Shown one piece after another: positions 1 through 17,401 of a stretch of 64,000 nucleotides of DNA. Source of the stretch: Bacteroidota bacterium (GTDB lineage: Bacteria > Bacteroidota > Ignavibacteria > UBA10030); contig JALONQ010000001.1 in the NCBI GenBank assembly GCA_025454835.1, positions 392,990-456,989 of the forward strand. The letters run 5' to 3'. Numbering within the stretch: the first letter of the stretch is position 1; the number at the start of each line of letters is the position of its first letter. The notes under the pieces are model-generated. The model was not told the DNA's origin. It ran no database searches and saw nothing but the letters and a program-made list of their open reading frames with translations. The position numbers and the translations under genes are program-made.

Positions 1-497
1 GACCGGTAGCTGGGCGGCAGGCGAACGATGACGTTCCTTCGGTATCGCAACCCCTTCCCAGCCAGATCGGGATGGATGTCGGCCGAGCCGGTCAACGTAC
101 TCGAGGGCTTGGGCATCGAGTCCTTCCAGCCCACCGGCGCAAGCGTGATGGTCGTGTCGCCTTCGACCATGAGCGTCGTGTTCTGAGGTGGGTGCCCGTC
201 ACGTTCGAAGATAGCTTCCGTCTCCCACGATCCTCGCGTGGCCTTGAATTCCATCCGAAGGCCTTTCGGCATGCGGAACGATCGCTCCGCCGTCATCGCT
301 TGGGTCCGTGTCAGTCGTATGATGCTTGGGTCCCAGGTCCCCAGGTCCTCATGATTGCCGGCAACGGTGATCGTGTCACCGATCGGCGTGCTCGGGGGCA
401 GTTGGATGCGAATCGTGACGTCGGAACTCTCTCGACAGCCCGCAAGCATCAGCAACGAGATCGTGACAGGCAACAGCGACCGACGGCAGAAGCGCAT
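1..497 (-). CDS. Partial (3'-truncated at window edge) lipoprotein with a CBM20-like starch-binding-type module; absent from the ORF track
   Basis: Manual minus-strand translation: frame open for 182 codons from 548 down to position 1 with no stop; ATG at 497 gives MRFCRRSLLPVTISLLMLAGC (lipobox LAGC), then ITVAGNHEDLGTWDP..FRMPKG..FKATRGSWETEA resembling CBM20. Alternative ATG at 548, 15 nt after the gdh stop. Confidence 0.45.
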   Translation of the reverse strand, partial: MRFCRRSLLPVTISLLMLAGCRESSDVTIRIQLPPSTPIGDTITVAGNHEDLGTWDPSIIRLTRTQAMTAERSFRMPKGLRMEFKATRGSWETEAIFERDGHPPQNTTLMVEGDTTITLAPVGWKDSMPKPSSTLTGSADIHPDLAGKGLRYRRNVIVRLPPSYR

Positions 498-562
498 CAC
501 ATCAGCGTCCTTGCGGGACGCGGCGTTGTATTCGGTCATGAGTGCCATGTCGTGAGCGGGGT

Positions 563-1810
563 TCATACCCATCCACGCAGTTTGCAGGCCTCCGCGACTC
601 TCGCGACACCGACCACCATGGCCGCAAGACGCGGATGAGTACCCTTCTCTTGCATAGCCTGCTGCACCGAATGCGACGCCCGCGTCAATTGGGCGTCGAG
701 CCGTTCGTGAACGAGGGATTCTGCCCAGAAGTACGAGTAGCGGTCCTGCACCATCTCGAAATACGAGACCGTCACCCCGCCGGCACTCGCCAGGATGTCC
801 GGGATGACGTGGATCCCCCGGCGATGGAGGATGAGGTCGGCCTCGGGCGTCGTGGGTCCATTGGCCAGCTCACAAATGATGCGGGCCTTGATGCGTTCCG
901 CGTTCACCTCGGAGATGGCATTCTCGAGTGCAGCAGGGTAGAGAATATCGACGTCCAATTCCAGGAGGTCATCCTGCCGGATGGGCTCGCTCTCGGGGAA
1001 GCCTGTCACGCTCCCGGTCGTGAGCTTGTGGGTGACGAGGTTCTTCGCGTTCAGGCCTTTCGCGGAATAGACGGCTCCGCGCGAATCGCTGACGGCGACG
1101 ATCTTGCCGCCGCCGAGCAGTTCCTGATGCAGGAGGGCGGCCCGTTGGCCGGCGTTGCCGAATCCCTGGATGGCCACCCGGCTGCGGGGGTCGACGCCGA
1201 GCGCCCGGCATGCCTCGCGAACGGCGATGACACCGCCCCTGGCCGTGGCACTCCGCCGTCCTTCCGTACCGCCGATCTGCAACGGTTTGTCGGTCAGCAC
1301 GCCGGGTTGATGGCGATGCGTGATCGTTTCGTACTCGTCCATCATCCACGCCATCGTCTGAGGATTCGTGTAGACATCCGGTGCGGGCACGTCTTTGTCG
1401 ACGCCGATGTATTCGGCGACGGCGCGGATATAGCCGCGGGAAAGCGACTCCAACTCCCGCTGTGACATCGATTTGGGCTCGCACACGACCCCCCCCTTGC
1501 CTCCACCGAGGGGCAGATCGGCCACGGCGGTCTTCCAGGTCATCCAAGAGGCGAGGGCCCGTATCGTATCGGCCGTCTCTTCCGGATGGAAGCGGATCCC
1601 GCCCTTCGCGGGTCCTCGCGCCGTGTTATACTGCATGCGATACCCGTGGAAGATCTTCGTGGTCCCATCGTCCATACGGACGGGGATCGTAAAGGAAAAC
1701 TCACGCTGCGGCCAAAGGAGCAGGTCGATCGTCGCTGCGTCGAGGTGAAGCAATCGCGCAGCCTCGAGCACCTGGCGCTGCGTCACGTGGAACGAATTGT
1801 ACGAGGTCAT
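563..1810 (-). CDS. gdh: Glutamate dehydrogenase, ~415-aa hexameric type (Glu/Leu/Phe/Val dehydrogenase family)
   Basis: GPAKGGIRFHPEET, LPLGGGKGGVVCEP catalytic-Lys/Gly-rich motifs, GFGNAG NAD(P) Rossmann motif; length typical of Thermotoga/Bacillus-type GDH. Confidence 0.85.
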   Translation of the reverse strand: MTSYNSFHVTQRQVLEAARLLHLDAATIDLLLWPQREFSFTIPVRMDDGTTKIFHGYRMQYNTARGPAKGGIRFHPEETADTIRALASWMTWKTAVADLPLGGGKGGVVCEPKSMSQRELESLSRGYIRAVAEYIGVDKDVPAPDVYTNPQTMAWMMDEYETITHRHQPGVLTDKPLQIGGTEGRRSATARGGVIAVREACRALGVDPRSRVAIQGFGNAGQRAALLHQELLGGGKIVAVSDSRGAVYSAKGLNAKNLVTHKLTTGSVTGFPESEPIRQDDLLELDVDILYPAALENAISEVNAERIKARIICELANGPTTPEADLILHRRGIHVIPDILASAGGVTVSYFEMVQDRYSYFWAESLVHERLDAQLTRASHSVQQAMQEKGTHPRLAAMVVGVARVAEACKLRGWV

Positions 1811-2004
1811 GGCATGGGCCCTTCGGACCGGTCCGCTGAGTGACGCTCATCGCGAACGTCGAGGATGATGCGATACCAGCAATGCTTGCACATGAGCGCC
1901 CGGTCGACGCTCAGGAGCACTTGTTCCCATCGGCTGAGGGAATGCCCGCAGTGCGGACACGTCTCAATCGGCGACGGGGGTCGTGGCTGTTGATCCGTTG
2001 CCAT
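1807..2004 (-). CDS. Candidate 65-aa zinc-ribbon micro-protein (CPHC-x21-CKHC), translationally coupled to the downstream gdh
   Basis: ORF overlaps the 3' end of the upstream 1016-aa gene by 41 nt; its TGA stop overlaps the gdh ATG as ATGA (1807-1810); two CxxC pairs. Could be chance in high-GC DNA. Confidence 0.25.
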   Translation of the reverse strand: MATDQQPRPPSPIETCPHCGHSLSRWEQVLLSVDRALMCKHCWYRIILDVRDERHSADRSEGPMP

Positions 2005-5000
2005 GCTTCACACCCGGTTTCAATATGACGCCTTTGTTGGAATGCCCGTTGATGCGGATGAGCAGCGGGTCGGCGAAGCGGACATGCCGGACGAATTCCT
2101 GCGACGAATGCGGCGGTTGTGAGAGCAACCACTCCCAGTCGAGAAAGCCCAGGGATTCATTCCGGTCGACGCTGAAGTAAGCGACCATGAAGGAGGTGAT
2201 ATTCTGAAAGAAGTGCGATCCCTGCGACGGAGTCACGGCAAGGTCCCGGAACGACGATTCGACGATCGCCTTCGCCCCGCAGATCTCGTTCCACGCTACC
2301 GGGATCCCCAACCAGGGATCCAGACTTCCCCATCGGCCGACGCCGACGAGCAGATACGGCCGTCCTTCGGAAAGAAGGAGAGAATTGAAGTGGGCCACCT
2401 CGGCCGCCACGAGACGGCTTTTCGCCCGGTCGAACCGATGATCGTCGACGACGACGACGTCGCGGATATCGTCGATCACACCATTCCCAAGAACGCGTGA
2501 GCTCTGGCACACCAGCTCGTTCCGGTTGAACATTTCGACGTTCAGTTCGTCGATCTCCCGATGGAGCACCAACGGCCGCATCTGCAGAAGGCCGAATTCC
2601 TTGGGTCGGCCGGCGGGCGGCGTCAGATTCACCGCAAACTCCAGCTCGACGGGCGTGCCCATGCCCCACGTACCCATGTCGAGCAGAAGATCGACGACCG
2701 CTGGCAGCGGAAACGACCTGCCCCGGAGAAGAGGCCCGAATGTGACGAGCCGGATCCCCTCTCGCGAGATGCCGTCGACGACAACGTCGTTGTCGGGGGA
2801 GAAGGTCGAACCGACGGGCGCCAACGTTCCATGCGACTCTGCCACGCTCAGGTCGAAGGCGCTGACGTGTTGATCGGTCGTGACGTCCCAGACCGCCGAC
2901 TCCGTATCCTCATCAAGCCGGAGCGCGAAGAAATCCCGCTGCGTGGTCGCGATGGCCTCATCGGCGGAGTAGAATTGGATGAGGTCGGTCGGATAGCGTG
3001 GACAGAACCGGACGACCGTTCCGCCTTCGACCACCATCTTGCCAAGCCCAAGCGCCACAGCCACGGTGCCGTCCGATGGCTTTTGCGTGGGGAGCGGGTA
3101 GAAATTGTATGACCGGGCCACGCCGGCGAAGCTTGGATAGAACGTCGCACCGTGGCGCGTCCCCACGAGCTTCTGGATGATCACCGCCATCTTCTCCTCC
3201 TCCTGGCGGTAACTCGTCATCCGAATGTAATTCTTTGCTCCTTGATAGTACGTCGACGCATAGACCCGCTTGATCGTCGTCAGGAGCTCGTTGAGCCGGA
3301 CAAGAGGATTGGCGTGCGTGTTCGGGAGCATGTACGTCTCGTACACTCCGGCGAACGGATGGTACTGCGAGTCCTCAAGGAGGCTCGAAGAGCGGACGGC
3401 GAGCGGAGCCCGCACGAGGTCGAGGAAGGCCACGAGCGCGGCCACCGCCTTTTCCGGAAAGTACGAGGCTTCCACGAATCGGCGCGTGATCTCCAGGTCA
3501 TCCGTGCTTGTCAGGGCAAAAGACCGCAGGCCGTTCGTGTCCACAAAATCGTCGAACACGTCGGTCGCAACGACGACCGCAGGGGGAACGGCGACCTCCA
3601 CCCCCCCGAACCGGTTGCGCACGTCGTAGTCGTTGATGATCGTGCTGATGAAACCCAGGCCGCGTCCCTTGCCCCCGAGCGATCCGCCGCCGATCCGGGC
3701 GAAGCTGCTGTCGGGGTCGAACGTGTCCCGGGCAAACTCGGCAATGATCCCGCGTTGCCTGACGGCGCGATACTCGCGGAGCGATTCGATGAGGTCCACA
3801 CGCAGGGCCTCACCCGTCGGATAATCGCTCACCTTGCGCGGCCGGAGCCGGTGGGCAAGCCAGAACTCCGTCCTCGCCTTCAACCAGTTCGAGAAGTGAT
3901 TCCGCTCCGCATGGTAGATGATGCTCTCGACCGGGACCCGGGCGAGCTGCTCCTCGAGCAGCCGCATGTCGCCCGCACGACCCACCTCCATCCCTCCTGG
4001 CATCCGGAATACGAAGTCGCCGAAGCTGAAGTACTGCATCATGAACGACCGGATATCCGACTGGAGAGTTGGGGAATCCTTGACGGAGAAGGCGGCGCCT
4101 TCGCCATGCGCCCGCGGCCCATTGTCGGGATTGTTCGAAAGGAGAAGCATCGGAAGGTCCGGCTGGCGTTGCTTCACCCGTCGGGCGAACTCGAGTCCCG
4201 ACCCGGCATCAAGTTTGCCGTCCCGCGGAAATTCGATGTCGGAGATGATGCCCAGCATGAAATCGCGGTAACGATCGTAGGTCTCCCAGGCCTCTTCGAA
4301 CGTCGTGCACAGAAGGATCTTCGGACGAGCGCGCATGCGCAGGAGTTTGTGGGAGAGGTTGATCCCCTCCGAAAGGAGTCGCCGCGACTGCTCCAACACC
4401 TCGGTATAGACCACTGGAAGGAGCGACGAGTACGCTTTGACGTTGTCTTCAACGACCACGATCGTTTGGACTCCCACCATGCTCGCATCGTGGGCGACGT
4501 TCATCCGGTCTTCGAGATACTTGATGATGGCGATGATGATCCGGAAGTCACCTTGCCATACGAACACCCTGTCGAACGCGTTGGGCGACGCCGACAGTAG
4601 GAGCTGCTGTAGCTCCCGGTTGTCGTGCGTCAGAAGCACGACAGGGATATTGAGACCCTCCTCCTTCACGAGGCGTGAGAAATGCGCCGCGTGCATGTCA
4701 TCGATGTGCAGCGTCGTGACGATCAGGTCAAAGCGCCGCTCTTCCTTCGCCAGCCGGATGGCCTCCCGGCCGCTCGAAACGCGCGTGAGCTCAGGAGAAT
4801 ACCCGAGGTTGAATCCCTCATACTCGTTGCGGATCAACTCGTAGAGCCGGCCGTCCTCCTCGAACAGATACAGATCGTACAGGCTCGACACCAGCAGGAT
4901 ATCGCGGATGCGGAGCCGCATCAGGTTCTGGAAACCCTGGAAGCGATTGCCGTATCCGTGCTCGACGAGGAGGATGTCGAGCGAGGAGGCCGTTTGTTCC

Positions 5001-5014
5001 TGGCTGGGATGCAT
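1964..5014 (-). CDS. Multidomain protein: degenerate receiver-like domain + canonical CheY-like receiver + PEP/pyruvate-binding (PPDK_N, ATP-grasp) domain + conserved C-terminal region of unknown function (paralog 1)
   Basis: IVVVEDN...GIISDIEFPRDG...LLLSNN...FSVKDSP is a canonical receiver; N-terminal ILLVSS/FDLIVTT copy lacks the acidic pocket and phospho-Asp. GGGSLGGKGRGLG, AVRSSSLLEDSQYHPFAGVYETY, MAVIIQ, GLGKMVVEGG match PpsA/PPDK N-domain motifs. No GGxxSHAAI His-swivel or TIM-barrel domain. Confidence 0.8.
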   Translation of the reverse strand: MHPSQEQTASSLDILLVEHGYGNRFQGFQNLMRLRIRDILLVSSLYDLYLFEEDGRLYELIRNEYEGFNLGYSPELTRVSSGREAIRLAKEERRFDLIVTTLHIDDMHAAHFSRLVKEEGLNIPVVLLTHDNRELQQLLLSASPNAFDRVFVWQGDFRIIIAIIKYLEDRMNVAHDASMVGVQTIVVVEDNVKAYSSLLPVVYTEVLEQSRRLLSEGINLSHKLLRMRARPKILLCTTFEEAWETYDRYRDFMLGIISDIEFPRDGKLDAGSGLEFARRVKQRQPDLPMLLLSNNPDNGPRAHGEGAAFSVKDSPTLQSDIRSFMMQYFSFGDFVFRMPGGMEVGRAGDMRLLEEQLARVPVESIIYHAERNHFSNWLKARTEFWLAHRLRPRKVSDYPTGEALRVDLIESLREYRAVRQRGIIAEFARDTFDPDSSFARIGGGSLGGKGRGLGFISTIINDYDVRNRFGGVEVAVPPAVVVATDVFDDFVDTNGLRSFALTSTDDLEITRRFVEASYFPEKAVAALVAFLDLVRAPLAVRSSSLLEDSQYHPFAGVYETYMLPNTHANPLVRLNELLTTIKRVYASTYYQGAKNYIRMTSYRQEEEKMAVIIQKLVGTRHGATFYPSFAGVARSYNFYPLPTQKPSDGTVAVALGLGKMVVEGGTVVRFCPRYPTDLIQFYSADEAIATTQRDFFALRLDEDTESAVWDVTTDQHVSAFDLSVAESHGTLAPVGSTFSPDNDVVVDGISREGIRLVTFGPLLRGRSFPLPAVVDLLLDMGTWGMGTPVELEFAVNLTPPAGRPKEFGLLQMRPLVLHREIDELNVEMFNRNELVCQSSRVLGNGVIDDIRDVVVVDDHRFDRAKSRLVAAEVAHFNSLLLSEGRPYLLVGVGRWGSLDPWLGIPVAWNEICGAKAIVESSFRDLAVTPSQGSHFFQNITSFMVAYFSVDRNESLGFLDWEWLLSQPPHSSQEFVRHVRFADPLLIRINGHSNKGVILKPGVKHGNGSTATTPVAD

Positions 5015-5079
5015 GTCGTCGCGTGAGCCCGCGGACGAGGCGATGCATGTCCCCGTCCGCGGGCGGTCCGCGCCTTCGT

Positions 5080-6441
5080 TTACACGACGCCCTGGTCAAC
5101 CATGGCGTCGGCGACCTTCAAGAAGCCGCCGATGTTCGCGCCGTTGACGTAGTTTCCGGGCGTTCCGAACCGGTCGGCCATCTCGACGCACGTCTTGTGG
5201 ATGCTCTTCATGATGAGATGGAGCCGCTGGTCCACCTCTTCGCGTGTCCACGGAAGCCTCATGCTGTTCTGAGACATTTCGAGACCGGACGTGGCCACGC
5301 CACCGGCGTTCGCCGCCTTGCCCGGACCGTACAGCACCTTCGCGTCGAGGAAGACCTTCACTCCGTCGGGCGTCGTCGGCATGTTCGCGCCCTCGGCGAT
5401 ACAGTGTACGCCGTTCCGCACGAGCGTTGCCGCGTCTTTGCCGTTGATCTCATTCTGCGTGGCGCTCGGAAAGGCGCAATCGGCCTTGTGCGTCCACAGC
5501 GGATTCGCGTCGGCCTTCGGATCGATCGGGAAATAGACCGCGCCCTTGTACTTGTCGGTGTATTCCTTCATCCGTCCACGACGGACGTTCTTCAATTGCA
5601 TGACAAAGGCCAGCTTCTCCCGGTCAATGCCCGCCTCATCATAGATATAGCCGTTCGAATCCGACAACGTGACCGCCTTGCCACCGAGGTCGAGGATCTT
5701 CTCGACCGTGTACTGGGCCACGTTGCCGCTGCCCGACACCAGGCAGCTCTTTCCCTTCAGCGTCGTTGAGCGCGTACCGAGCATTTCCGCCGCGAAGTAC
5801 ACCGCACCGTAGCCCGTCGCTTCCGGACGGATGAGCGACCCCCCCCAGTTGAGCCCCTTGCCCGTCAAGACGCCGGTGAACTCGTTCCGGAGCTTCTTGT
5901 ACATGCCGAACAGATACCCGATCTCACGTCCACCGACCCCGATGTCGCCGGCCGGTACGTCGGTGTTGGGACCAATATGGCGGGACAGTTCGGCCATAAA
6001 AGCCTGGCAGAACCGCATGATCGAGAGCTCGCTCTTTCCCTTCGGGTCAAAGTCCGATCCACCTTTGCCCCCGCCCATCGGAAGCGTTGTCAGGCTGTTC
6101 TTGAACACCTGTTCGAATGCCAGAAACTTCAGGATCCCGAGCGTGACGGAAGGATGGAATCGCAATCCTCCCTTGTAGGGTCCGATCGCGCTGTTCATCT
6201 CGATCCGATAGCCCCGGTTGACATGGATGTCCCCTCGGTCGTCGACCCAAGGAACACGGAAAGTGATCACGCGCTCGGGTTCGACCATCCGTTCCAGGAT
6301 CCGGGCCGTGCGGTACTCCGGATGCCGCTCGAGAACGAGCGCGAGTGAATCGACGACCTCCTGAACGGCTTGGTGAAATTCCGGCTCCGCAGGATTCTTC
6401 GCCTTCACTTCAGCCATGAAATCAGAGACGAAAGTTGACAT
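5080..6441 (-). CDS. gdhA: NADP-specific glutamate dehydrogenase, ~50 kDa GdhA type (copy 1)
   Basis: Strong similarity to E. coli-type GdhA (NPAEPEFHQAVQEV, GPYKGGLRFHPSV, LPMGGGKGGSDFDPKGKS). Start moved from the track's 6528 to ATG 6441 (MSTFVSDF), preceded by GAGGAGG. Confidence 0.9.
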   Translation of the reverse strand: MSTFVSDFMAEVKAKNPAEPEFHQAVQEVVDSLALVLERHPEYRTARILERMVEPERVITFRVPWVDDRGDIHVNRGYRIEMNSAIGPYKGGLRFHPSVTLGILKFLAFEQVFKNSLTTLPMGGGKGGSDFDPKGKSELSIMRFCQAFMAELSRHIGPNTDVPAGDIGVGGREIGYLFGMYKKLRNEFTGVLTGKGLNWGGSLIRPEATGYGAVYFAAEMLGTRSTTLKGKSCLVSGSGNVAQYTVEKILDLGGKAVTLSDSNGYIYDEAGIDREKLAFVMQLKNVRRGRMKEYTDKYKGAVYFPIDPKADANPLWTHKADCAFPSATQNEINGKDAATLVRNGVHCIAEGANMPTTPDGVKVFLDAKVLYGPGKAANAGGVATSGLEMSQNSMRLPWTREEVDQRLHLIMKSIHKTCVEMADRFGTPGNYVNGANIGGFLKVADAMVDQGVV

Positions 6442-6534
6442 AGAAACCTCCTCGCAGGTGAGTTGTGGAGCGTGATGGGGCTGGGCCCTACCAGAAACCG
6501 CCACGAGCCCGTATGGCGTCGAACGCAACAGCGA

Positions 6535-9531
6535 TCAGGTCACTCCGGGTTTCAGGATGACCCCGCGATTCTTGTGCCCATTGATCTTTGCGATCAGCGG
6601 CCGGTCGAAACACAGGTGTCGGGCCATCGAAAGCTCACGGACGGCCGGCTGCGAACGCAACCAGTCCCAGTTCACCCGCCCGAGGTGTTCGAACGGGTTG
6701 ACGGTGAAGTATCCTACACGGAACGACGTGATGTTCTGGAAGAAATGCGATCCCTGGGACGGTGTTACATTGAAATCGCGGAAGGCCGACTCGACGATGA
6801 CCGAGGCGCCGGCGATCTGATCCCAGCTGACCGGTATTCCAAGCCAATGGTCGAGACTTCCCCAGCGACCGACTCCGATGAGGATGTAGGGACGCTTCTG
6901 TGAGAGCAGGACCGCATTGAGCTCAGCGACCTCGCTCGCCACGAGCTTGCTCTGTTCCCGATCGAACGATTCGATGTCGACGACGATAGCATCGTAGATA
7001 TCGTTGATCATCCCGTTGCCGAGCACCCGTTCGCTCGAGCAAACCACGTCGGCCTCTTCGTAGGTGCCGATCTCAAGCTCATCGAGCTCCCGATGGAGCA
7101 CCATCGGACGGATCTGCAACATCGCGAACTCCTGCAGCCGACCATCCAGACCGGTGAGCGTCGCCGCGAACTCGATCTCGACGGGCGTGCCCATACCCCA
7201 CGTTCCCATTTCGAGCATGAGATCGACGATCTCAGGCAGCGGAAAGATCTGATGCTTGAGGACCGGAGCGAAGGTTACAACGCGCTTGCCTGGACGCGAG
7301 ATGCCGTCATACACGGCCTCGTTCTCGGGGGACCAGGTTGAACCGACGGCGTACAGCGTTCCGTCTGCCTCGGACGATGCGAGGTCGTAGCGGCAGATGA
7401 AGGTCTCGGGGGCATGCGCCGCACCATCGCGCAGGTCAGCCTCCAGGTCGAGGGCATAGAACTGTTGCTGCGCGTGCTTGATCGTTTCGTTCGTCGAGTA
7501 GAACTGCATGAGATGGCGCGGATGCTTCGGGCAGAACCGGACGACATTGCCGCCGTCGACGACGGTCTTGCCAAGGCCGAGAGCCACCTGGACGATGCCG
7601 TCGGTCGCAGACTGCGGTGGTACTGGATAGAAATTGTAGGATTTCGCCACGCCGGCAAAATCGGGATAGAAGCGGCCATTGTGCCGTTCGCCGACCACAC
7701 ACTGGATGATCACGGCCATCTTCTCTTCTTCGAGCCGATAGGCCGTGGCCTTCATGTAGTCCCGTGCCTGCCTCGCGAACGTCGAGGCATAGACCAGCTT
7801 GATGCTCTCGATGAGCTCTTGCATCCGGAGGTGCTTGTCCGGATTGTTGTTCGGGATCATATACGTCTCGTAGACCCCTGCGAACGGCTGATACTGTGCG
7901 TCCTCCAGCAGGCTCGACGAGCGGATCGCCAGCGGCTCCTTGACGATGTCAAGATAGTCCCAGAGTTTGCGGACCACCTCGTGGGAGAAGTGCGGGGCCT
8001 CGAGGAATCGATCCCGGAGTTCCTTGTCGTCCGGTCCCGACAGTGCGAACGCCTCCAGATGATTCTTCTCGAGGAACTCGTCGAAGACATCCGTGGCGAT
8101 GATGACAGCCGAGGGAACGCTGATGACCACGCCCGGGAAGCGGTGGCGGAGACCGTAGTTATTGATGAGCGAATTGACGAATCCCAGGCCGCGCGCCTTG
8201 CCACCGAGCGATCCGCCACCCATCCGTGCCAGGGTATTCTTCGGGTCGAAGCTCTCCGCCGAGAACTCGAGAATGACCCCGCGCTGGCGCATCTCGCGGT
8301 ACCGACGCAGATCGCCGATCAGCGATTGGCGGAGCGCTTCTGGCGTAGGATAGTCATCGACCTTCTGGGGCCGGAGCCGATATGCCAGGCCGAACTCCGT
8401 TCGGGCCTTCAGCCACTTCGAAAAGTGATTCCGGTTCGCGTGGAAGACGATCGACTCCTCCGGCACCGACATGAGGCCTTCTTCGAGCGTCGTGAGATCG
8501 ACCGCCCGGCCGACCTCGGTTCCATCAGCCATTCTGAACTGGAAATCGCCGAAACCGAAGTTATTGAGAACAAAGGCCCTGAGCTCGTGCAAGAGTCGGG
8601 GATCGCCTTTCCGGAGGAATGCGGCACCGCACTCGTGCGCCGACGCTTCAAAGTCCGTATTGCTCGACTGGAGCAGCACGGGAATATCGTCTTGAAGCTC
8701 GCGGACTTTGCGTGCGAAGAGGAGCCCGGCCTCCGGGTCCTTCACGCCGTTGCGGACGTAGTTAACGTCGGAGACAATACCGAGGACGTGCTCTCGATAG
8801 GTCTGGAATGCCGCCCACGCCTCGTCGTACGTGTGACAGAGCAGGATCTTGGGCCTGGCGCGCATGCGCAGCAGCCGGTGAGAGATGTTGACGCCTTCAC
8901 GGATCAGGCGTTGCGATTGATTGAGGACCTCCGAATAGAGGATGGGCAGGTAGGAAGAGTAGAATTTGACATTGTCTTCGACGAGGATGATCACCTGCAC
9001 GCCGGCCATCCGGGTGTCCTCTTCGACATTGCGCCGGTCCTCGATATCCTTGATGATGGCGATCAGAAGCCGGTAGTCGCCGAGCCAGATGAAGATGCGC
9101 TCGAAGATCGACGTGTCGTACTGCGTCACGATCTCTTTGCGCTCCTGGTTGTCATACGCGAGGAGGATGATCGGGATGTCGTACCCGGCGGCGCGGACCG
9201 CCTGCGCGAACTTCACGACATGCATATCCTCAATATGCATCGTCGAGATAATGAGGTCGAACGCTCGGCCGTCCCTCATGAGCTCGAGGGCTTCGGCAGC
9301 CGTCGAGGCGTGGGTGAACTCGGGAACGAAGCTCAGATTAAGAGCCATCGCCTCCTGGTGCACGAGTTCGTACAGCCGGCCATCCTCTTCGAACAGATAG
9401 TTGTCGTAGAGGCTCGAGACCAGGAGGATGTCGCGGACACGGAAGCGCATCAAGTGCTGAAAGCTCTTGATGCGGCTCCCCTGGATGTCTTCGGTATGGC
9501 GGAGGTCGGCGTTCTCCATCATCATCGGCAT
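6535..9531 (-). CDS. Paralog 2 of the receiver/receiver/PPDK_N-domain protein (998 aa)
   Basis: Collinear with 1964..5014 (~60% identity): VIILVEDN...GIVSDVNYVRNG, MGGGSLGGKARGLG, AIRSSSLLEDAQYQPFAGVYETY; identical C-terminal blocks VGRWGSLD.WLGIPV.W and VTPSQGSHFFQNITSF. Confidence 0.8.
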   Translation of the reverse strand: MPMMMENADLRHTEDIQGSRIKSFQHLMRFRVRDILLVSSLYDNYLFEEDGRLYELVHQEAMALNLSFVPEFTHASTAAEALELMRDGRAFDLIISTMHIEDMHVVKFAQAVRAAGYDIPIILLAYDNQERKEIVTQYDTSIFERIFIWLGDYRLLIAIIKDIEDRRNVEEDTRMAGVQVIILVEDNVKFYSSYLPILYSEVLNQSQRLIREGVNISHRLLRMRARPKILLCHTYDEAWAAFQTYREHVLGIVSDVNYVRNGVKDPEAGLLFARKVRELQDDIPVLLQSSNTDFEASAHECGAAFLRKGDPRLLHELRAFVLNNFGFGDFQFRMADGTEVGRAVDLTTLEEGLMSVPEESIVFHANRNHFSKWLKARTEFGLAYRLRPQKVDDYPTPEALRQSLIGDLRRYREMRQRGVILEFSAESFDPKNTLARMGGGSLGGKARGLGFVNSLINNYGLRHRFPGVVISVPSAVIIATDVFDEFLEKNHLEAFALSGPDDKELRDRFLEAPHFSHEVVRKLWDYLDIVKEPLAIRSSSLLEDAQYQPFAGVYETYMIPNNNPDKHLRMQELIESIKLVYASTFARQARDYMKATAYRLEEEKMAVIIQCVVGERHNGRFYPDFAGVAKSYNFYPVPPQSATDGIVQVALGLGKTVVDGGNVVRFCPKHPRHLMQFYSTNETIKHAQQQFYALDLEADLRDGAAHAPETFICRYDLASSEADGTLYAVGSTWSPENEAVYDGISRPGKRVVTFAPVLKHQIFPLPEIVDLMLEMGTWGMGTPVEIEFAATLTGLDGRLQEFAMLQIRPMVLHRELDELEIGTYEEADVVCSSERVLGNGMINDIYDAIVVDIESFDREQSKLVASEVAELNAVLLSQKRPYILIGVGRWGSLDHWLGIPVSWDQIAGASVIVESAFRDFNVTPSQGSHFFQNITSFRVGYFTVNPFEHLGRVNWDWLRSQPAVRELSMARHLCFDRPLIAKINGHKNRGVILKPGVT

Positions 9532-9619
9532 GTCACCATCCGTCAGTTCGCAACCGCTGCGATGCCACCGGACGGTATGCGTCTGGAGCCTTCGTCCGGC
9601 AGATCCGGACGGTCCCCGA

Positions 9620-10960
9620 CTACACCAGCCCCTGGTCCATCATCGAGGTCGCCACCTTCAGGAATCCGGCGATGTTCGCACCGGTAACGTAGTTCCCCGG
9701 TGCGCCATACGTCCGTGAGACTTCGAGACAGGTGTCGTGGATCGTTGTCATGATCTGATGGAGGCGCTGGTCGACCTCGTCGCGGGGCCAAGCCAGCCGC
9801 ATGCTGTTCTGACTCATTTCGAGGCCCGAAGTGGCCACCCCGCCGGCGTTCGACGCCTTGCCGGGCGAGAACAGCACCTTCGACTCCTCGAACACGCGGA
9901 TACCGCCCAGCGACGTCGGCATGTTCGCGCCTTCGCAGACGCAGAAGCATCCGTTCTTCACGAGTTCTTTCGCGTCATTCTCGTCGAGCTCATTCTGCGT
10001 CGCGCACGGAAGTGCCACGTCGACCTTCGTGCCCCACGGCCGCTTGCCGGCGTGGAATTCGACCTTGAACTTGTCGGCGAAGTCTTTCACGCTGTCGCGG
10101 GCGCTGGCCCGCATCTCGAGCATGTATTCGATCTTCTCCCCTGAAATGCCGCTCGGGTCGTGGACGAACCCGTCCGGTCCTGAGAGGGTGACGACCTTCG
10201 CGCCGAGTTGGGTCGCCTTCAAGACGGCGCCCCATGCCACGTTGCCGAAGCCGGAGACCGCCACGCGCAACCCGTCGAAGCTCTTGCTGCGCGTCTTGAG
10301 CATCTCCTGCGCAAAGTAGACGACGCCGAAACCGGTCGCCTCGGGCCGGATACGTGAGCCACCCCAATTGAGGCCCTTGCCCGTCAGGACGCCGGAGAAC
10401 TCGCGCGTCAGGCGCTTGTACTGGCCGAACAAGTACCCGATCTCACGCGCGCCGACGCCAATATCGCCCGCAGGCACGTCGATGTCTGGACCGATATGCC
10501 GGTAGAGCTCCGTCATGAAGCTCTGGCAGAACCGCATCACCTCAAGATCGCTCTTCCCCTTCGGGTCGAAATCCGAACCGCCTTTGCCGCCTCCCATGGG
10601 GAGCGTCGTGAGGGCGTTCTTGAAGACCTGCTCGAACGCCAGGAACTTCAAAGTGCCGAGTGTGACCGACGGGTGGAAGCGCAGACCGCCTTTGTAGGGA
10701 CCGATGGCGCTGTTCATTTGAACGCGAAAACCCCGATTGACGTTGAACTCGCCACGATCGTCGAACCAAGGGACGCGGAAGATCACCACGCGTTCGGGTT
10801 CGACCATCCTTTCGAGGATCTTCGCCGAGCGGTATTCGGGGTGGCGTGCCAGCACCGGCTCCAGGGAATGCAATACCTCTTGTACTGCTTGATGGAACTC
10901 GGGTTCCGCGGGGTTCTTCGTCTTGACCAGGGTGAGGATCGATTCAGAGTAGGAATTCAT
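9620..10960 (-). CDS. gdhA: NADP-specific glutamate dehydrogenase GdhA (copy 2, ~85% identical to copy 1)
   Basis: Same motifs as copy 1. Start moved to ATG 10960 (MNSYSESILTLVKTKNPAEPEF), preceded by GGAGAA. Confidence 0.9.
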   Translation of the reverse strand: MNSYSESILTLVKTKNPAEPEFHQAVQEVLHSLEPVLARHPEYRSAKILERMVEPERVVIFRVPWFDDRGEFNVNRGFRVQMNSAIGPYKGGLRFHPSVTLGTLKFLAFEQVFKNALTTLPMGGGKGGSDFDPKGKSDLEVMRFCQSFMTELYRHIGPDIDVPAGDIGVGAREIGYLFGQYKRLTREFSGVLTGKGLNWGGSRIRPEATGFGVVYFAQEMLKTRSKSFDGLRVAVSGFGNVAWGAVLKATQLGAKVVTLSGPDGFVHDPSGISGEKIEYMLEMRASARDSVKDFADKFKVEFHAGKRPWGTKVDVALPCATQNELDENDAKELVKNGCFCVCEGANMPTSLGGIRVFEESKVLFSPGKASNAGGVATSGLEMSQNSMRLAWPRDEVDQRLHQIMTTIHDTCLEVSRTYGAPGNYVTGANIAGFLKVATSMMDQGLV

Positions 10961-11192
10961 AGAAGGTTCTCCAAGGGACTCGGATTTCAGTTCCTGCAGC
11001 GGAGGTGGTAGGGAGGGATCTCCGCGTTGGACAGTTCGCCGCTCTGGCAGCAATCGTCATGCCCGAGGACGGGTACAGATGTTCCTCCAAATTCAGTGGA
11101 AATGCAAGGCAGACAATCGGTGCCACGCCCACATGGGACTTCCGGAGGACCATTTCTTAGCGGTGGGAAGGCTATTCCCGGGAAGACGCACG

Positions 11193-11227
11193 GTGCAAAA
11201 ACGCGAAGGTCCCCGGAGAGGGGACCT
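11193..11227 (-). terminator. Rho-independent terminator after the B12-uptake gene cluster
   Basis: Minus-strand RNA GGUCCCCUCUCCGGGGACC followed by UUCGCGUUUUUGC, 24 nt downstream of the stop of the 175-aa membrane protein. Confidence 0.6.
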
Positions 11228-11250
11228 TCAAAGGCACAGACCGGAAACGT

Positions 11251-11778
11251 TCAACGGGATGCGGGTTCTGTCGACATCGCCCAGGAAGGCATCCAGCGGC
11301 GGGCGAACTCGAACGTGCCCGAGAGGATGGCGACATACACAAGGTCCCCGAGCACCGTGTTGCGGAAGAAGGGAATGGCGACCACATAGCATTCAACGAG
11401 GCCCGCCCACGTTTTCGGATAGACGCCTCCATCTCCCACCAACCACACACCGAAATTCGTCACAAGGAAGAAGAACACCGATCCGCCGAGCGTTGCGCCG
11501 GCAACGACGGGCACGGACCGGCGATCGCGCAACCAGAGGCCGATCGCACTGCTCGCGGCAAAGCTGACATAGACGAACGGCATGATGCCATGCATGCCCA
11601 GGAAGAGGTCGCTCACGAGCATCGCCGCCAACGGAAGGATGAAGGCATACCGGCGATCGAGATACAACGCGCCCGTGAGGGCCAACGCCGCCAGCGGGGT
11701 CACGTTGGGCGGGTGCGGCAGGAACCGCGTGAGCGCGGCAATGCCGATGACGACCGTGGCGAAAAGAACGTGCTTCAT
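11251..11778 (-). CDS. Small polytopic membrane protein (175 aa, ~5 TM), function unknown; the 3'-most CDS of the riboswitch-btuB gene cluster
   Basis: Hydrophobic segments throughout; 57-nt gap to the upstream propeller gene, same strand, followed by a terminator. Confidence 0.6.
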   Translation of the reverse strand: MKHVLFATVVIGIAALTRFLPHPPNVTPLAALALTGALYLDRRYAFILPLAAMLVSDLFLGMHGIMPFVYVSFAASSAIGLWLRDRRSVPVVAGATLGGSVFFFLVTNFGVWLVGDGGVYPKTWAGLVECYVVAIPFFRNTVLGDLVYVAILSGTFEFARRWMPSWAMSTEPASR

Positions 11779-11835
11779 ATCAGCCTCCAGGTGAACGTAT
11801 GCGTGAATGATGGTACAGAAAAATCCGTTCGCATG

Positions 11836-12960
11836 CTACGGCAGGAAGACAAATCCATTCGGCGCCACGCCGATCCCTGCAACATAGGTCCGCACGGGGG
11901 TTCCCGACAGCGTGTGTACCTGCACGGTCCCATTGCTGACGAAATCGCCGGCCAGCGACAGATACAGTTCCGAGCGCGCGCGGTCCACGCCAACGCCATA
12001 GAAGTTCCCGGCGACGAGCAATGTCGACACGATCATCGGCGATGATCCTCCGGTCAGTTTCATCACACCCGATCCTCCCGCCCCGGAGACCGTGACGTAG
12101 AGGTCTCCCGATGCATCCACCGCGATCCGACCGGCGGGCTGGGAGAGGCGAACCGTATCGACCACATTGCCGGAGGCCCCGTCGATCGTCAGTACCGCTC
12201 CGGGCACGTCGAGCCCTCCTCCCCACGCCACCGATCCCGTGCACAGGACATGCATCAGTCCGGAAGTCCCGAGCACCCCGTATGACGGTCCGTGTGGCGT
12301 CGAGATCGTCGCCATCACGTTGTCGGTCTTCAGGTCGATGACGCTCACGCTCGAACCGTATCCCCATCCCCCATTGAAGACATACAGCCGGTCGCCGAAT
12401 CGGATCAATCCCTCCGGGTTGGTTCCGACGACGATCTCCTTGGCCACGACACCTCCGCTCAGGTCGAGCACGGAGACCGTTGAGTCCATATTCGTCACAT
12501 AAGCTAGGAGAGACGAGACGACCTCAATGGATCGCGGGGCGCGCGTGAGCATGATCGTCTGCAGCCAACGATGTGTGCCCGCTTCGATCACTTCGATCTT
12601 CCGGGAGTTGTTCACGACGACATACAACTTGCCGTTGGCGAGGGCAGCATGTTGGGCAACGTCTCCGAGCGTCCGTCCTGAATTGGCGGTCGAGAACACG
12701 GCCCCCGAGACGTTCGTCCGGTCCTCACCAATGAACGAGATCTCCGCGTTCGAAGCCAAGAACGACCCTTCGTTGATCACGTAGATGCCCTTGGGTCCAC
12801 TGACGGCTGGACCCGGGTCGACGACCGGGTCGCACCCTCCTCCAAGAATGACCGCCAGAAGCATGGAGCACACCCAGCCACCACGAAGGCGGATCTGTCG
12901 ACCTCGACTGAGGCCGCCGTTCACTGAAGATCCTGACACTGCACTACTCTCATTCGTCAT
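11836..12960 (-). CDS. Beta-propeller lipoprotein (YVTN/YncE-like repeats); candidate BtuG-like surface B12-binding protein
   Basis: Repeated blade-like motifs (LYVVVNNS, AYVTNMDSTVSVLD, LYVFNGG, LYVTVSG); lipobox LLAVILGGGC if translation starts at the internal ATG (12864). Sits immediately downstream of the btuB-like gene. Confidence 0.6.
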   Translation of the reverse strand: MTNESSAVSGSSVNGGLSRGRQIRLRGGWVCSMLLAVILGGGCDPVVDPGPAVSGPKGIYVINEGSFLASNAEISFIGEDRTNVSGAVFSTANSGRTLGDVAQHAALANGKLYVVVNNSRKIEVIEAGTHRWLQTIMLTRAPRSIEVVSSLLAYVTNMDSTVSVLDLSGGVVAKEIVVGTNPEGLIRFGDRLYVFNGGWGYGSSVSVIDLKTDNVMATISTPHGPSYGVLGTSGLMHVLCTGSVAWGGGLDVPGAVLTIDGASGNVVDTVRLSQPAGRIAVDASGDLYVTVSGAGGSGVMKLTGGSSPMIVSTLLVAGNFYGVGVDRARSELYLSLAGDFVSNGTVQVHTLSGTPVRTYVAGIGVAPNGFVFLP

Positions 12961-15240: not shown

Positions 15241-16956
15241 TCAGTACCCTACCGCGCCGCCGTCGGGATCGCGCGGGTCCGCCACGCCCCAACGGAGCCT
15301 CGTCGCCGGATCGACGAGGATGCCGTGCACGCGGCCCTGCGTTCCACCGAAGGACACGCGATGACCTTTGGCCCGCAACAGTTCCTCCGTGTCCCTCGAG
15401 ACGCCGAACCTCTCGATCCTTAGCACGTTCGGTTGCCACTGATGGTGGACCCGCTTCGCGGCCACCGCATCGATAAGGCTCATGCGATGGTCGACGAGAT
15501 TCAGCGTCACCTGCAGCACGGTATTGATGATCGTCCGGCCTCCAGGGCTCCCGATGAGCGCCCACGGCTGCCCATCCTTCATGATGATCGTCGGGGTCAT
15601 GCTCGACAACATCCGCTTCCCCGGTGCCACACGATTGGCCTTCGTACCGATGAACCCCAACGAGTCGGTGCGTCCAGGGACAGGGTTGAAGTCTCCCATC
15701 TCGTTGTTGAGGAGGAAGCCCAGCCCATCCGCAACGATACGCGATCCGTAGCCGTATTCCAGCGTGTACGTGACCACCACGGCGTTCCCCTCGGCGTCCA
15801 CGACCGAATAGTGGGTCGTCTGATCGCTTTCCGACGCTGATTCGACGGCGCTGACAGGGATGTCGCCGGCCCGCGCGCGGTCGATTCCCGCCCGCACGTG
15901 CTCGGCATACGTTTTTGAGGTGAGACGAGCGATCGGAAGCTGCGAGTTCGCGTCGGGGTCGCCCATGTGCGCTGCGCGGTCCGCAAACGCCCGCCGCATG
16001 GATTCGGTCACGAGATGAAGATACTCCGCCGAATTGTGGCCCAGGGCTTGGAGATCATACCCTTCGAGGATATTCAGCATTTCGATGAGCGCCGTACCGC
16101 CGGAACTCGGCGGGGGCATCGACACGATCTCGTGATCCCTGTATGTTCCTCGAATCGGAACGCGCTCGACGGCTTCGTACTCATTGAGGTCCGCCTCGCT
16201 GACGAGGCCTCCGTTCGCCCGCATGTCGACAGCCAGCAGGCGGGCCGTCGTACCTTGGTAGAATCCGTCGCGTCCGTCCGTCATGATGCGCCGGAGCGTC
16301 TCGGCCAGGTCGGGCTGCTTCCACGTCTCCCCCATTTGGTAGTTCGACCCGTCGGGCTTGAGGAAGACCTTGGCTGATGCGGGATAGCGTTTCCAGTCCG
16401 CCGTCAGGGCCTTAAAATCTGACGCCATGGACCAACTCAGCGGAAAGCCCTCTGCGGCGAGCCGCACGGCCGGCTCCGTCACCTCGCTCCAGGCCCGCGT
16501 ACCGAACCGACGCAGTGCCAGATCGAATCCTGCGATCGTGCCCGGCACCCCGACGGACAAGTAGCCCTCGTGGTTGAGGTCGTCAACGTACCGACCGTTC
16601 GCATCCAGGTACATCCGTTCGTGTGCCCCGGCAGGCGCCTTCTCCCTGAAATCGAAAGAGGTGGTCGTGCCATCCTTCCACCGGACGATCATGAATCCCC
16701 CGCCGCCGATATTCCCGGCGGCGGGATGAACGACAGCCAACGCCAATCCGGTGGCAACCGCCGCGTCCACAGCGTTTCCGCCCGACTTCAGCACCTCCAT
16801 CCCGACGCGAGAAGCCAGGACGTGTGCCGACACGACCATGCCGTGCTTCGCGACGGACGGACCGTTCGACGTCTGATCGGCGACTGTGACCGAGGGCGGT
16901 GCACAACCCCAGGTGACCGCAACCAGGGCGAGAGAGGCGAGGATGGCACGACGCAT
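15241..16956 (-). CDS. ggt: Gamma-glutamyltranspeptidase (lipoprotein-type signal peptide)
   Basis: GGT family motifs (GGGFMIV, TTHYSVVD, GSPGG); start moved to ATG 16956 (MRRAILASLALVAVTWGC), leaving a 10-nt gap after ssb. Confidence 0.85.
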   Translation of the reverse strand: MRRAILASLALVAVTWGCAPPSVTVADQTSNGPSVAKHGMVVSAHVLASRVGMEVLKSGGNAVDAAVATGLALAVVHPAAGNIGGGGFMIVRWKDGTTTSFDFREKAPAGAHERMYLDANGRYVDDLNHEGYLSVGVPGTIAGFDLALRRFGTRAWSEVTEPAVRLAAEGFPLSWSMASDFKALTADWKRYPASAKVFLKPDGSNYQMGETWKQPDLAETLRRIMTDGRDGFYQGTTARLLAVDMRANGGLVSEADLNEYEAVERVPIRGTYRDHEIVSMPPPSSGGTALIEMLNILEGYDLQALGHNSAEYLHLVTESMRRAFADRAAHMGDPDANSQLPIARLTSKTYAEHVRAGIDRARAGDIPVSAVESASESDQTTHYSVVDAEGNAVVVTYTLEYGYGSRIVADGLGFLLNNEMGDFNPVPGRTDSLGFIGTKANRVAPGKRMLSSMTPTIIMKDGQPWALIGSPGGRTIINTVLQVTLNLVDHRMSLIDAVAAKRVHHQWQPNVLRIERFGVSRDTEELLRAKGHRVSFGGTQGRVHGILVDPATRLRWGVADPRDPDGGAVGY

Positions 16957-16966
16957 GATGCAGGCC

Positions 16967-17401
16967 TCAGAACGGTAGATCGTCGTCCTTGGCGGAAGGT
17001 CCGGGACCGGTCGGAGGCGAGGAAGGCCCGGGGTCCGAGGCTCCGCCGCCGGCGGCGGCGTCACGATTGCGGCCGTCGAGCATCACCATCTGATCGATGA
17101 CGATCTCCGTGACGTAGCGCTTCACGCCGTTCTTGTCGTCGTACGTTCGGTATTGCAGACGGCCTTCGACGTAGATCTTGCTCCCCTTCTTGAGGTATTC
17201 ACCGATGACCTCCGCCAGTTTCCGCCAGGCGACGAGGTTGTGCCATTCGGTGCGTTCCTGCGTGTTGCCCTCGGCATCGCGCCATGACTCGTTGGTGGCG
17301 AGCGTGAATGTGGCAACGGCGACACCGCTGCCGGTGTAGCGCACTTCGGGATCTTTCCCGAGGTTGCCGATCAAGATGACCTTGTTGACGCTGCGTGACA
17401 T
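16967..17401 (-). CDS. ssb: Single-stranded DNA-binding protein
   Basis: OB-fold SSB N-terminus ([19 protein letters not shown]), Gly/Pro-rich linker, acidic tail DDDLPF. Confidence 0.9.

Follow-up and report, generated by a model that had tools for sequence, protein, structure and literature searches.

Gene organization

We analysed a stretch of 64,000 nucleotides from a Bacteroidota bacterium of the Ignavibacteria lineage (contig JALONQ010000001.1, positions 392,990 to 456,989, forward strand), which we call the window. Near its start lie two paralogous genes, X1 and X2, whose products join receiver-type domains to a dikinase-type ATP-grasp domain and a C-terminal module; we refer to these proteins and their homologues as X. 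The two genes alternate with three glutamate dehydrogenase (GDH) genes in the order GDH(446 amino acids, aa)-X2-GDH(453 aa)-X1-GDH(415 aa). All five genes are co-directional, and the gaps between them measure 88, 93, 65 and 153 nt. The features of the cluster, from its upstream edge, are as follows.

11204..11230, minus strand: terminator-like hairpin of 11 pairs with a T run, which closes the preceding gene and bounds the five-gene GDH-X cluster upstream
9620..10960, minus strand: NADP-type GDH, 446 aa, upstream of X2; ATG at 10960, open reading frame (ORF) reaching 11053
6535..9531, minus strand: X2, paralogue of X1 (998 aa), with the same five-part architecture by alignment and Pfam
5080..6441, minus strand: NADP-type GDH, 453 aa, between X2 and X1; ATG at 6441, ORF reaching 6528
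1964..5014, minus strand: X1 (1016 aa plus stop), an uninterrupted ORF with Pfam matches to PPDK_N and Response_reg
563..1810, minus strand: GDH of the archaeal/GdhA type, 415 aa, 153 nt downstream of X1; ELFV_dehydrog and ELFV_dehydrog_N

The ELFV_dehydrog_N and ELFV_dehydrog domains were found in all three neighbouring GDHs (E 1e-50 to 1e-85). The 453-aa and 446-aa enzymes pass the cut-off of the NCBIfam model PRK09414 (749 and 735 bits, respectively, against 536), and the 415-aa enzyme scores 536 bits with GdhA_Arch, under that model's cut-off of 750. None of the four gaps between the cluster genes holds a minus-strand hairpin comparable to the one at 11204-11230. The one remaining minus-strand terminator-like site (6499-6518, 6 pairs) lies inside the middle GDH ORF only when that ORF is read at full length; with translation from the ATG at 6441 the site would be intergenic. 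No Rfam family was found in window positions 1-12000. The alignment of the X1 and X2 proteins covers 990 residues, contains a single gap and shows 57% identity.

Domain architecture of X

X1 consists of five parts. Their positions, and those of the residues discussed below, are:

4475..4918, minus strand: pseudo-receiver REC1, residues 33-180 (Response_reg, 34.9 bits; alignments to solved receivers)
4070..4474, minus strand: intact receiver REC2, residues 181-315; helix 1 is followed by a long insertion
4238..4240, minus strand: codon of Asp259, where REC2 is predicted to be phosphorylated (alignment with NtrC)
3683..4069, minus strand: conserved linker, residues 316-444, with faint similarity to DUF5752 (PF19027)
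2540..3682, minus strand: PPDK_N-type ATP-grasp nucleotide-binding domain, residues 445-825 (PF01326)
2006..2539, minus strand: C-terminal module, residues 826-1003, alpha/beta, with the GRWGS and PSQGSHFF motifs (AlphaFold2, AF2; no family match)
2324..2338, minus strand: GRWGS motif, residues 893-897 (R894 in 197/197 sequences)
2213..2215, minus strand: codon of His934 (SQGSHFF), a candidate phospho-carrier or catalytic residue (196/197)
6745-6747, minus strand: codon of X2 His929, the counterpart of X1 H934

A first-pass annotation of this DNA had described a first receiver stripped of its acidic pocket and phospho-aspartate, an intact second receiver, and a dikinase ATP-grasp lacking a recognizable histidine carrier. 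Our results bear out this description on all three counts. In REC1 the acidic pair is replaced by S43 and S44 (ILLVSS, residues 39-44), and Thr101 stands at the position of the phospho-acceptor (FDLIVTT, residues 95-101, compared with FDLIITD and PDLILTD of solved receivers). Both strings also occur in X2, and all three residues are invariant in an alignment of 75 homologues. As they occupy the acidic-pair and phospho-acceptor positions, we regard REC1 as a pseudo-receiver. Its Response_reg score exceeds the cut-off of 30.2 in X1 but not in X2 (22.3 bits); the receiver fold is nevertheless borne out by Pfam, by alignments to solved receivers, and by the presence of receivers and PleD among the whole model's Foldseek matches. 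The start of REC1 (residues 26-78, window 4780-4940; QGFQNLMR.R....LLVSSLYDL.LFEEDGRLYELIR) is the most conserved stretch of X. Its mean column conservation is 97% among 122 close homologues, above that of the catalytic domains. Such conservation is unusual in a degenerate domain and suggests a protein-protein interface.

REC2 retains the five residues of a receiver active site, E189 and D190 (VEDN), D259 (GIISDI), S293 and K312, and all five are invariant in the 75 sequences. In an alignment with NtrC, D259 falls on Asp54 and S293 on Thr82. The Pfam match is weak (E 0.016, 15.8 bits on the excised region), probably because the insertion of ~30 residues after helix 1 breaks the profile. AF2 gives an alternating strand/helix pattern for the domain, and in the full-length AlphaFold model of X1 (pLDDT 76.3) the REC-REC part matches PleD (Foldseek E 3e-8). 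The linker that follows matches PF19027 only below threshold (E 0.0022-0.038) and carries a strongly conserved motif, FSFGDF..FR...NHFS.WLKARTEFWLA..LRPR. The linker is missing from homologues of ~585 aa, yet it is present in some forms without receivers. No HisKA, HATPase_c or HPt domain was found in X1 or X2 (Pfam, E <= 0.1).

In the ATP-grasp domain, PF01326 matches residues 445-821 of X1 (E 2e-37, 129.7 bits) across profile positions 3-315 of 328 and scores 120.3 bits in X2, against a cut-off of 27. The closest structures of the whole X1 model are those of rifampin phosphotransferase (RPH; 5hv1, Foldseek E 7e-13). The ATP-binding domain of RPH (5hv6; TM score 0.71 on the target, profile E 1.7e-6) aligns residue for residue with the GGKG, VRSS..ED..FAG and VIIQ motifs of X1. 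Residues K449 (GGKG), R541 (VRSS), E547/D548, FAG554-556 and Q614 are invariant in the 75 sequences. The same is true of the terminal strand of the domain, E790/E792...Q811.R813, which, by analogy with pyruvate phosphate dikinase (PPDK), would be the Mg/beta-phosphate site. Because these motifs are kept and invariant, the nucleotide site looks functional. NCBIfam gives X only partial ATP-grasp matches, to PigC, RedH, phosphoenolpyruvate (PEP) synthase and rifampin phosphotransferase. The scores of 35-56 bits lie far under the cut-offs of these models (about 600-1350), which places X outside all of these families; it is neither a PEP synthase nor a PPDK. Pfam finds PEP-utilizers and PEP-utilizers_C domains in neither X1 nor X2. 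A third, substrate-binding domain (a TIM barrel or a rifampin-binding domain) likewise has no Pfam match, and the unassigned stretches of X are all too short for one.

The C-terminal module

The first-pass annotation had placed the start of an unassigned C-terminal block near residue 780. The block begins instead near residue 826 and spans ~175 residues, the ATP-grasp domain ending near 825. The annotation also overstated the likeness of the two paralogues in describing their last ~230 residues as nearly identical. Residues 780-1016 are about 59-60% identical, near the 57% of the whole proteins, and only the core at 886-950 is higher, at 75%. The two motifs quoted from this core are exact in both paralogues, at positions 892 and 927 of X1 and 887 and 922 of X2.

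In the full-length AlphaFold model, a low-confidence linker (817-823) joins the ATP-grasp to the module, and the loop that carries the histidine (932-942) is the only low-confidence part within the module. Residues 826-1016 modelled alone by AF2 gave a pLDDT of 89.5 and a pTM of 0.87. The module begins with a hairpin, a long helix, the strand YLLVGV, a 20-residue loop with GRWGSLDPWLGIPVAW and the strand AIVES. It continues with the loop PSQGS, a helix from H934, the strand VAYFSV, a short helix and a three-stranded sheet ending in INGHSNKGVI. H934 follows Gly-Ser at the N-terminus of the predicted helix (module positions 108-116).

The module is strongly conserved across orthologues, well beyond what chance would give, in line with the earlier proposal. 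Conservation was scored in 197 sequences with identities down to about 38%, including a sister family, Y, described below. R894, G903, S930 and G932 are present in 197/197, G896 and H934 in 196/197, and E919 in 195/197. Residues R894, D899, E919, S930, H934 and N938 form the conserved polar constellation of the module.

The earlier view that this block belongs to no known family also stands. Pfam gave no match at E <= 10, either for the X1 tail or for 44 family tails scanned singly, and NCBIfam gave none. A search of PDB sequences with the family profile returned nothing relevant for the module, and only the ATP-grasp aligned when a full-length X profile was compared with full-length RPH. With the module model as query, Foldseek gave no PDB or BFVD match at E <= 0.001; the best PDB match had an E of 0.066 and a TM score of <= 0.28. 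A likeness of residues 861-973 to the JmjC protein JMJD5 (phmmer E 0.05) was reproduced neither by the family profile nor by Foldseek and was set aside.

Distribution of the family and its linkage to GDH

X homologues number in the thousands (7918 scored candidates at E <= 1e-5). Ignavibacteria and Bacteroidota account for most of the database matches, and one of the loci, L068, belongs to a Melioribacter MAG. The module alone retrieves at least 1555 cluster representatives (50% identity clusters; E <= 1e-3), 368 of them at E <= 1e-30, and it occurs in at least 595 stretches of species-representative genomes. It directly follows the ATP-grasp in 63/63 representatives of at least 560 aa. The architectures of these 63 are:

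REC1-REC2-linker-grasp-module: 43 of 63
grasp-module alone (about 585 aa): 7 of 63
forms with one or no receiver: 10 of 63
tandem grasp-module-grasp-module fusions: 3 of 63

The second unit of the tandem fusions corresponds to Y, a separate family of about 860-1066 aa. Y proteins have an N-terminal extension, PPDK_N, a GRWGS...SFGTHFFQD module and a Pol-beta-type nucleotidyltransferase domain, and their module matches that of X with E 1e-20 to 6e-22. In P0128, P0134 and P0136 (1523-1654 aa), Y is fused to X. Because the module is shared with Y and occurs in these fusions, the ATP-grasp and the module form an old, conserved two-domain unit. X homologues are variously named 'PEP/pyruvate-binding domain-containing protein', 'CheY-like chemotaxis protein', 'histidine kinase' and 'hypothetical protein'. 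Full-text literature searches returned no paper on the X family or on the pairing of GDH with a dikinase. A role in defence was also considered and rejected: neither X nor short X has a PADLOC match, and only the nucleotidyltransferase of Y gave weak ones (PDC-S09; NCBIfam MntA, also weak).

Genomic context was sampled at 80 loci retrieved with the module. They come from Ignavibacteria, Bacteroidota, KSB1, Calditrichia, Eisenbacteria, Zixibacteria, Acidobacteriota, Gemmatimonadales and Thermoleophilia. A GDH gene lies beside X on the same strand at 65 of the 80. With 1-3 GDH copies per 3-4 Mb genome, we estimate that chance alone would place one in about 1% of random 18-kb stretches. The order seen in the window, GDH-X2-GDH-X1-GDH, recurs in L001, L009, L012, L015, L037, L060 and L069. 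About half of the 15 loci without an adjacent GDH are cut by a contig end. In all five receiver-less loci examined, a cassette of GDH, short X, Y and a convergent metallophosphoesterase was found, with GDH immediately upstream. This conserved linkage to GDH, which is new relative to the first-pass annotation, is the strongest functional clue to X.

Y genes: L003 9846-13022; L005 10434-13016; L086 8785-11979; L087 8778-11978; L088 8796-11978
stand-alone receiver genes: L001 12489-12929; L002 5570-6010; L004 12498-12935; L035 10038-10514; L064 10016-10480
extra GDH-like genes, minus strand: L008 11835-12974; L037 11170-12354; L082 11226-12386; L045 10797-11579

Several further genes were seen at these loci. 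A Pat-like protein lysine acetyltransferase of 892 aa (CoA_binding, Succ_CoA_lig, ATP-grasp_5 and Acetyltransf_1 domains), another protein-modifying enzyme, follows the GDH-X-Y-phosphoesterase cassette at two of the five receiver-less loci (L003 14370-17048; L086 13242-15746). In several Ignavibacteria and Bacteroidota loci, a stand-alone receiver of 145-158 aa (KKSVLIVEDS...) is convergent to the last GDH or X gene; a tblastn search of window positions 1-560 found no counterpart. Some Ignavibacteria loci carry the extra GDH-like gene in opposite orientation just past the GDH-X array, giving up to four GDH paralogues in 13 kb. A lead from the neighbourhood of gdhA in Bacteroides was dropped because BT1971, numbered next to BT1970 (presumably the gdhA locus), is a catalase.

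Other features of the window

Elsewhere the window consists of FCB-group core chromosome. At 15241-17064 (minus strand), 4 kb upstream of the GDH-X cluster, lies a gene for a gamma-glutamyltranspeptidase (E 1e-158), and genes for a TonB-dependent receptor and a DUF5074 protein stand between the two; the transpeptidase is possibly a glutamate-related context or a coincidence. Plus-strand ORFs lie antisense to X1 (3152-4600, 482 aa) and X2 (7414-9687, 757 aa). Their composition looks like that of shadow ORFs in DNA of 62% GC, and we did not take them for genes; family matches were not sought for them.

Discussion

Based on the architecture of X and its association with GDH, we tentatively propose that X is a receiver-gated, dikinase-type, ATP-utilizing phosphotransferase that uses H934 as its carrier and acts on GDH or its metabolism. 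The input would come from a sensor kinase that phosphorylates Asp259 of REC2. The pseudo-receiver REC1 may serve as an adaptor or dimerization partner, much as in PleD, and the receiver pair would then switch on the catalytic half of the protein. This half would consist of the PPDK_N ATP-grasp, which binds ATP, and the family-specific alpha/beta module of ~175 residues. H934, ringed by the invariant R894, D899, E919 and S930, would take a phosphoryl (or pyrophosphoryl) group from the ATP-grasp, and the module would thereby play the part that falls to the swivel domain in PEP synthase, PPDK and RPH. The module would then pass the group to an acceptor. Because X has no third, substrate-binding domain and is linked to GDH genes across phyla, this acceptor is most likely GDH itself or a GDH-linked metabolite. 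The outcome would be signal-dependent control of the interconversion of glutamate and 2-oxoglutarate. We infer the chemical steps, the direction of control and the acceptor from the anatomy of the protein, the conservation of its residues and the company its gene keeps.

That H934 is a phospho-carrier seems plausible from several features of the sequence. To our knowledge, every characterized PPDK_N enzyme (PPDK, PEP synthase, glucan water dikinase, RPH and PigC) uses a phosphohistidine carrier. H934 is nearly invariant, also in Y, the module that bears it comes directly after the ATP-grasp throughout, and the ATP-grasp has kept its nucleotide-site motifs. H934 is placed at the N-terminus of a helix after small residues, the module is attached by a flexible linker and presents the histidine on a loop, and there is no third domain.

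Several observations weigh against this proposal. The invariance of a histidine would be explained just as well by a role as general base, as metal ligand or in the structure. The module shows no detectable similarity to phosphohistidine domains by Pfam, PDB-sequence profile, HHalign or Foldseek. We made a direct comparison with swivel domains because the order of motifs in the tail resembled theirs (GSHFFQNI and TSHAAIVA). The swivel alignment comprised four seeds and 120 database proteins with PF00391 (124 sequences). The seeds were one PPDK, Escherichia coli PpsA, Listeria RPH and E. coli EI; the PpsA and RPH seeds recurred almost verbatim among the database matches. HHalign gave the tail a probability of only 0.2-0.4% against this alignment, also when the 197-sequence tail profile was used. 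Additionally, no sensor kinase is encoded near the GDH-X cluster in the window, and about seven well-flanked loci have unrelated genes in place of a GDH neighbour. Finally, adjacency to GDH shows functional coupling and is no proof that GDH is the phospho-acceptor.

The ancestry of the module can be read in more than one way. We initially regarded it as a diverged PEP-utilizers swivel domain, and the HHalign result demoted this idea to an alternative: a true but extremely diverged swivel phosphohistidine domain with H934 as the canonical carrier, which we now regard as possible but doubtful. X would then be a dikinase of the PEP-synthase/RPH type without a third domain, and its mechanism would be the one proposed above, with ancestry alone differing. 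The module and the swivel domain run through the same elements in the same order: a hairpin, a strand (YLLVGV and ILV), a loop (DPW and TDPsW), a strand (AIVE and glvT), a loop ending in [ST]-H, a helix, a strand and a terminal hairpin (INGxxxKGV and vdGxxGxv). HHalign's relaxed path picks this co-linear register, though without statistical weight, and the module follows the ATP-grasp as the swivel domain does in PPDK, PEP synthase and RPH. Among the weak Foldseek matches, those with the best TM scores are to Cpn60/GroEL (PDB rank 22; BFVD ranks 6 and 8) and a PA-domain protein (BFVD rank 7), which we take to share the swivelling beta/beta/alpha fold (SCOP c.8) with phosphohistidine domains. 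Thus, the module could be a swivel-type domain that has diverged beyond detection. However, every statistical test of this relationship failed, whether by Pfam, by hidden Markov model against PDB sequences, by HHalign (probability below 1%, E 0.16-0.29 for a single comparison) or by Foldseek, where the GroEL and PA matches have E values of 0.2-0.5 and no PPDK, EI, PEP synthase or RPH chain appears in the top 50. The module is also ~60 residues longer than a swivel domain. The first-pass annotation had suggested that the H934 block replaces a missing swivel domain. It was right that no recognizable carrier domain is present, but the idea of a replacement may be wrong, as the order of elements is co-linear with that of the swivel.

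If the lack of any detectable relation to carrier domains is taken at face value, the module could instead be a substrate- or target-binding or catalytic domain that forms no phosphohistidine, with H934 as a base or ligand; the first-pass annotation had likewise offered an effector or binding domain as its second option. Phosphate or AMP would then go straight from the ATP-grasp to an acceptor, either a small molecule or GDH, that the module holds. The constellation of R894, D899, E919, S930, H934 and N938 does look like a binding or active site, and X offers no other candidate for a substrate-binding domain. We nevertheless consider this unlikely, given that the characterized PPDK_N enzymes all work through a histidine carrier. 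A flexible linker and a mobile histidine loop also suit a carrier better than a fixed site, and the module is retained in Y, which has an extra nucleotidyltransferase domain of its own. We judge it very unlikely that X is a self-contained His-Asp phosphorelay, in which the phosphoryl group would pass from the ATP-grasp to H934 and on to D259 or to a nearby stand-alone receiver. An intact receiver and a candidate histidine do share one polypeptide, the homologue P0029 is named 'histidine kinase' in one source, and the stand-alone receiver gene is a recurrent neighbour at the five loci listed above. But X has none of the domains of a conventional relay (HisKA, HATPase_c, HPt), and no stand-alone receiver adjoins the window cluster. 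Moreover, the receiver-less forms of about 585 aa retain both the histidine and the GDH linkage; the job of the histidine is therefore independent of the receiver, which weakens the case for an internal relay. We give still less credence to X as a non-catalytic regulator whose ATP-grasp senses ATP/AMP and whose module binds GDH allosterically. The tight linkage to GDH would fit such a role, and allosteric protein partners of bacterial GDH exist: an APRT homologue in Thermus and GarA in mycobacteria. However, catalytic motifs of the ATP-grasp that are fully kept across phyla, together with a nearly absolute polar constellation, exceed the usual demands of ligand sensing.

A bolder version of our proposal of a receiver-gated phosphotransferase is that the unit of PPDK_N and the GRWGS/SQGSHFF module represents an unrecognized class of protein-directed dikinases. 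These would phosphorylate GDH through a new phosphohistidine carrier and so provide many phyla with a GlnE-like switch. We find this improbable. If it were so, the long forms could possibly be under two-component control, and the receiver-less forms could work together with the nucleotidyltransferase paralogue and a metallophosphoesterase 'eraser'.

By analogy with known systems, X would work most like RPH and PEP synthase and receive its signal most like PleD. The PPDK_N domain of RPH (5HV1, 5HV6) and of the PRK06241 PEP-synthase-like proteins is the best structural and sequence match, and in RPH, as in X, the ATP-grasp precedes a histidine-bearing C-terminal domain. X, however, lacks two domains of RPH, the rifampin-binding domain of 430 residues and the PF00391 swivel. 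It has a pair of receiver-type domains ahead of the ATP-grasp, and between its tail and the RPH swivel there is no match. PPDK and PEP synthase share the PF01326 family and the GGKG, VRSS and FAG motifs with X, but X lacks their PEP-utilizers mobile domain and PEP-utilizers_C TIM barrel. The prodigiosin ligases PigC and RedH give the best partial NCBIfam matches to the ATP-grasp (E 2e-15), although the score is 55 bits against a cut-off of 1300 over about 150 aligned residues. PigC has swivel and substrate domains, and its genomic context is unrelated to that of X. The glucan, water dikinases of plants (GWD and PWD) offer a parallel both for a carrier domain that escapes notice and for an acceptor that is a polymer or protein; they are PPDK_N enzymes that phosphorylate a macromolecule, not a small metabolite, and whose phosphohistidine domain is too divergent for PEP-utilizers annotation. 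These enzymes differ from X in that the histidine domain comes before PPDK_N, they have starch-binding modules and no receivers, and they are eukaryotic/plastidial. The signal input recalls PleD, in which tandem REC folds, one of them without a phospho-acceptor, control an enzyme domain; the logic of its receiver and pseudo-receiver is described in 10.1101/2025.06.23.661182. In X the degenerate receiver comes first and is the most conserved part of the protein, and an ATP-grasp unit takes the place of the GGDEF cyclase as output.

In sum, X is best read as a dikinase-type enzyme with an undescribed C-terminal histidine module and receiver control, coupled to GDH. The module is a defined domain that deserves a family model of its own, and H934, R894, E919, S930 and D259 make a short list of residues for mutation. 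As GDH is a concrete partner, the question of function is directly testable. If the module is a carrier domain unrelated to the swivel, or related to it by fold alone, the repertoire of dikinase chemistry would be wider. The linkage of X to GDH suggests a layer of control in central nitrogen metabolism that has gone unstudied. Carbon and nitrogen metabolism meet at GDH. Covalent modification is a well-known means of controlling glutamine synthetase, but we know of no general covalent-modification system for bacterial GDH.

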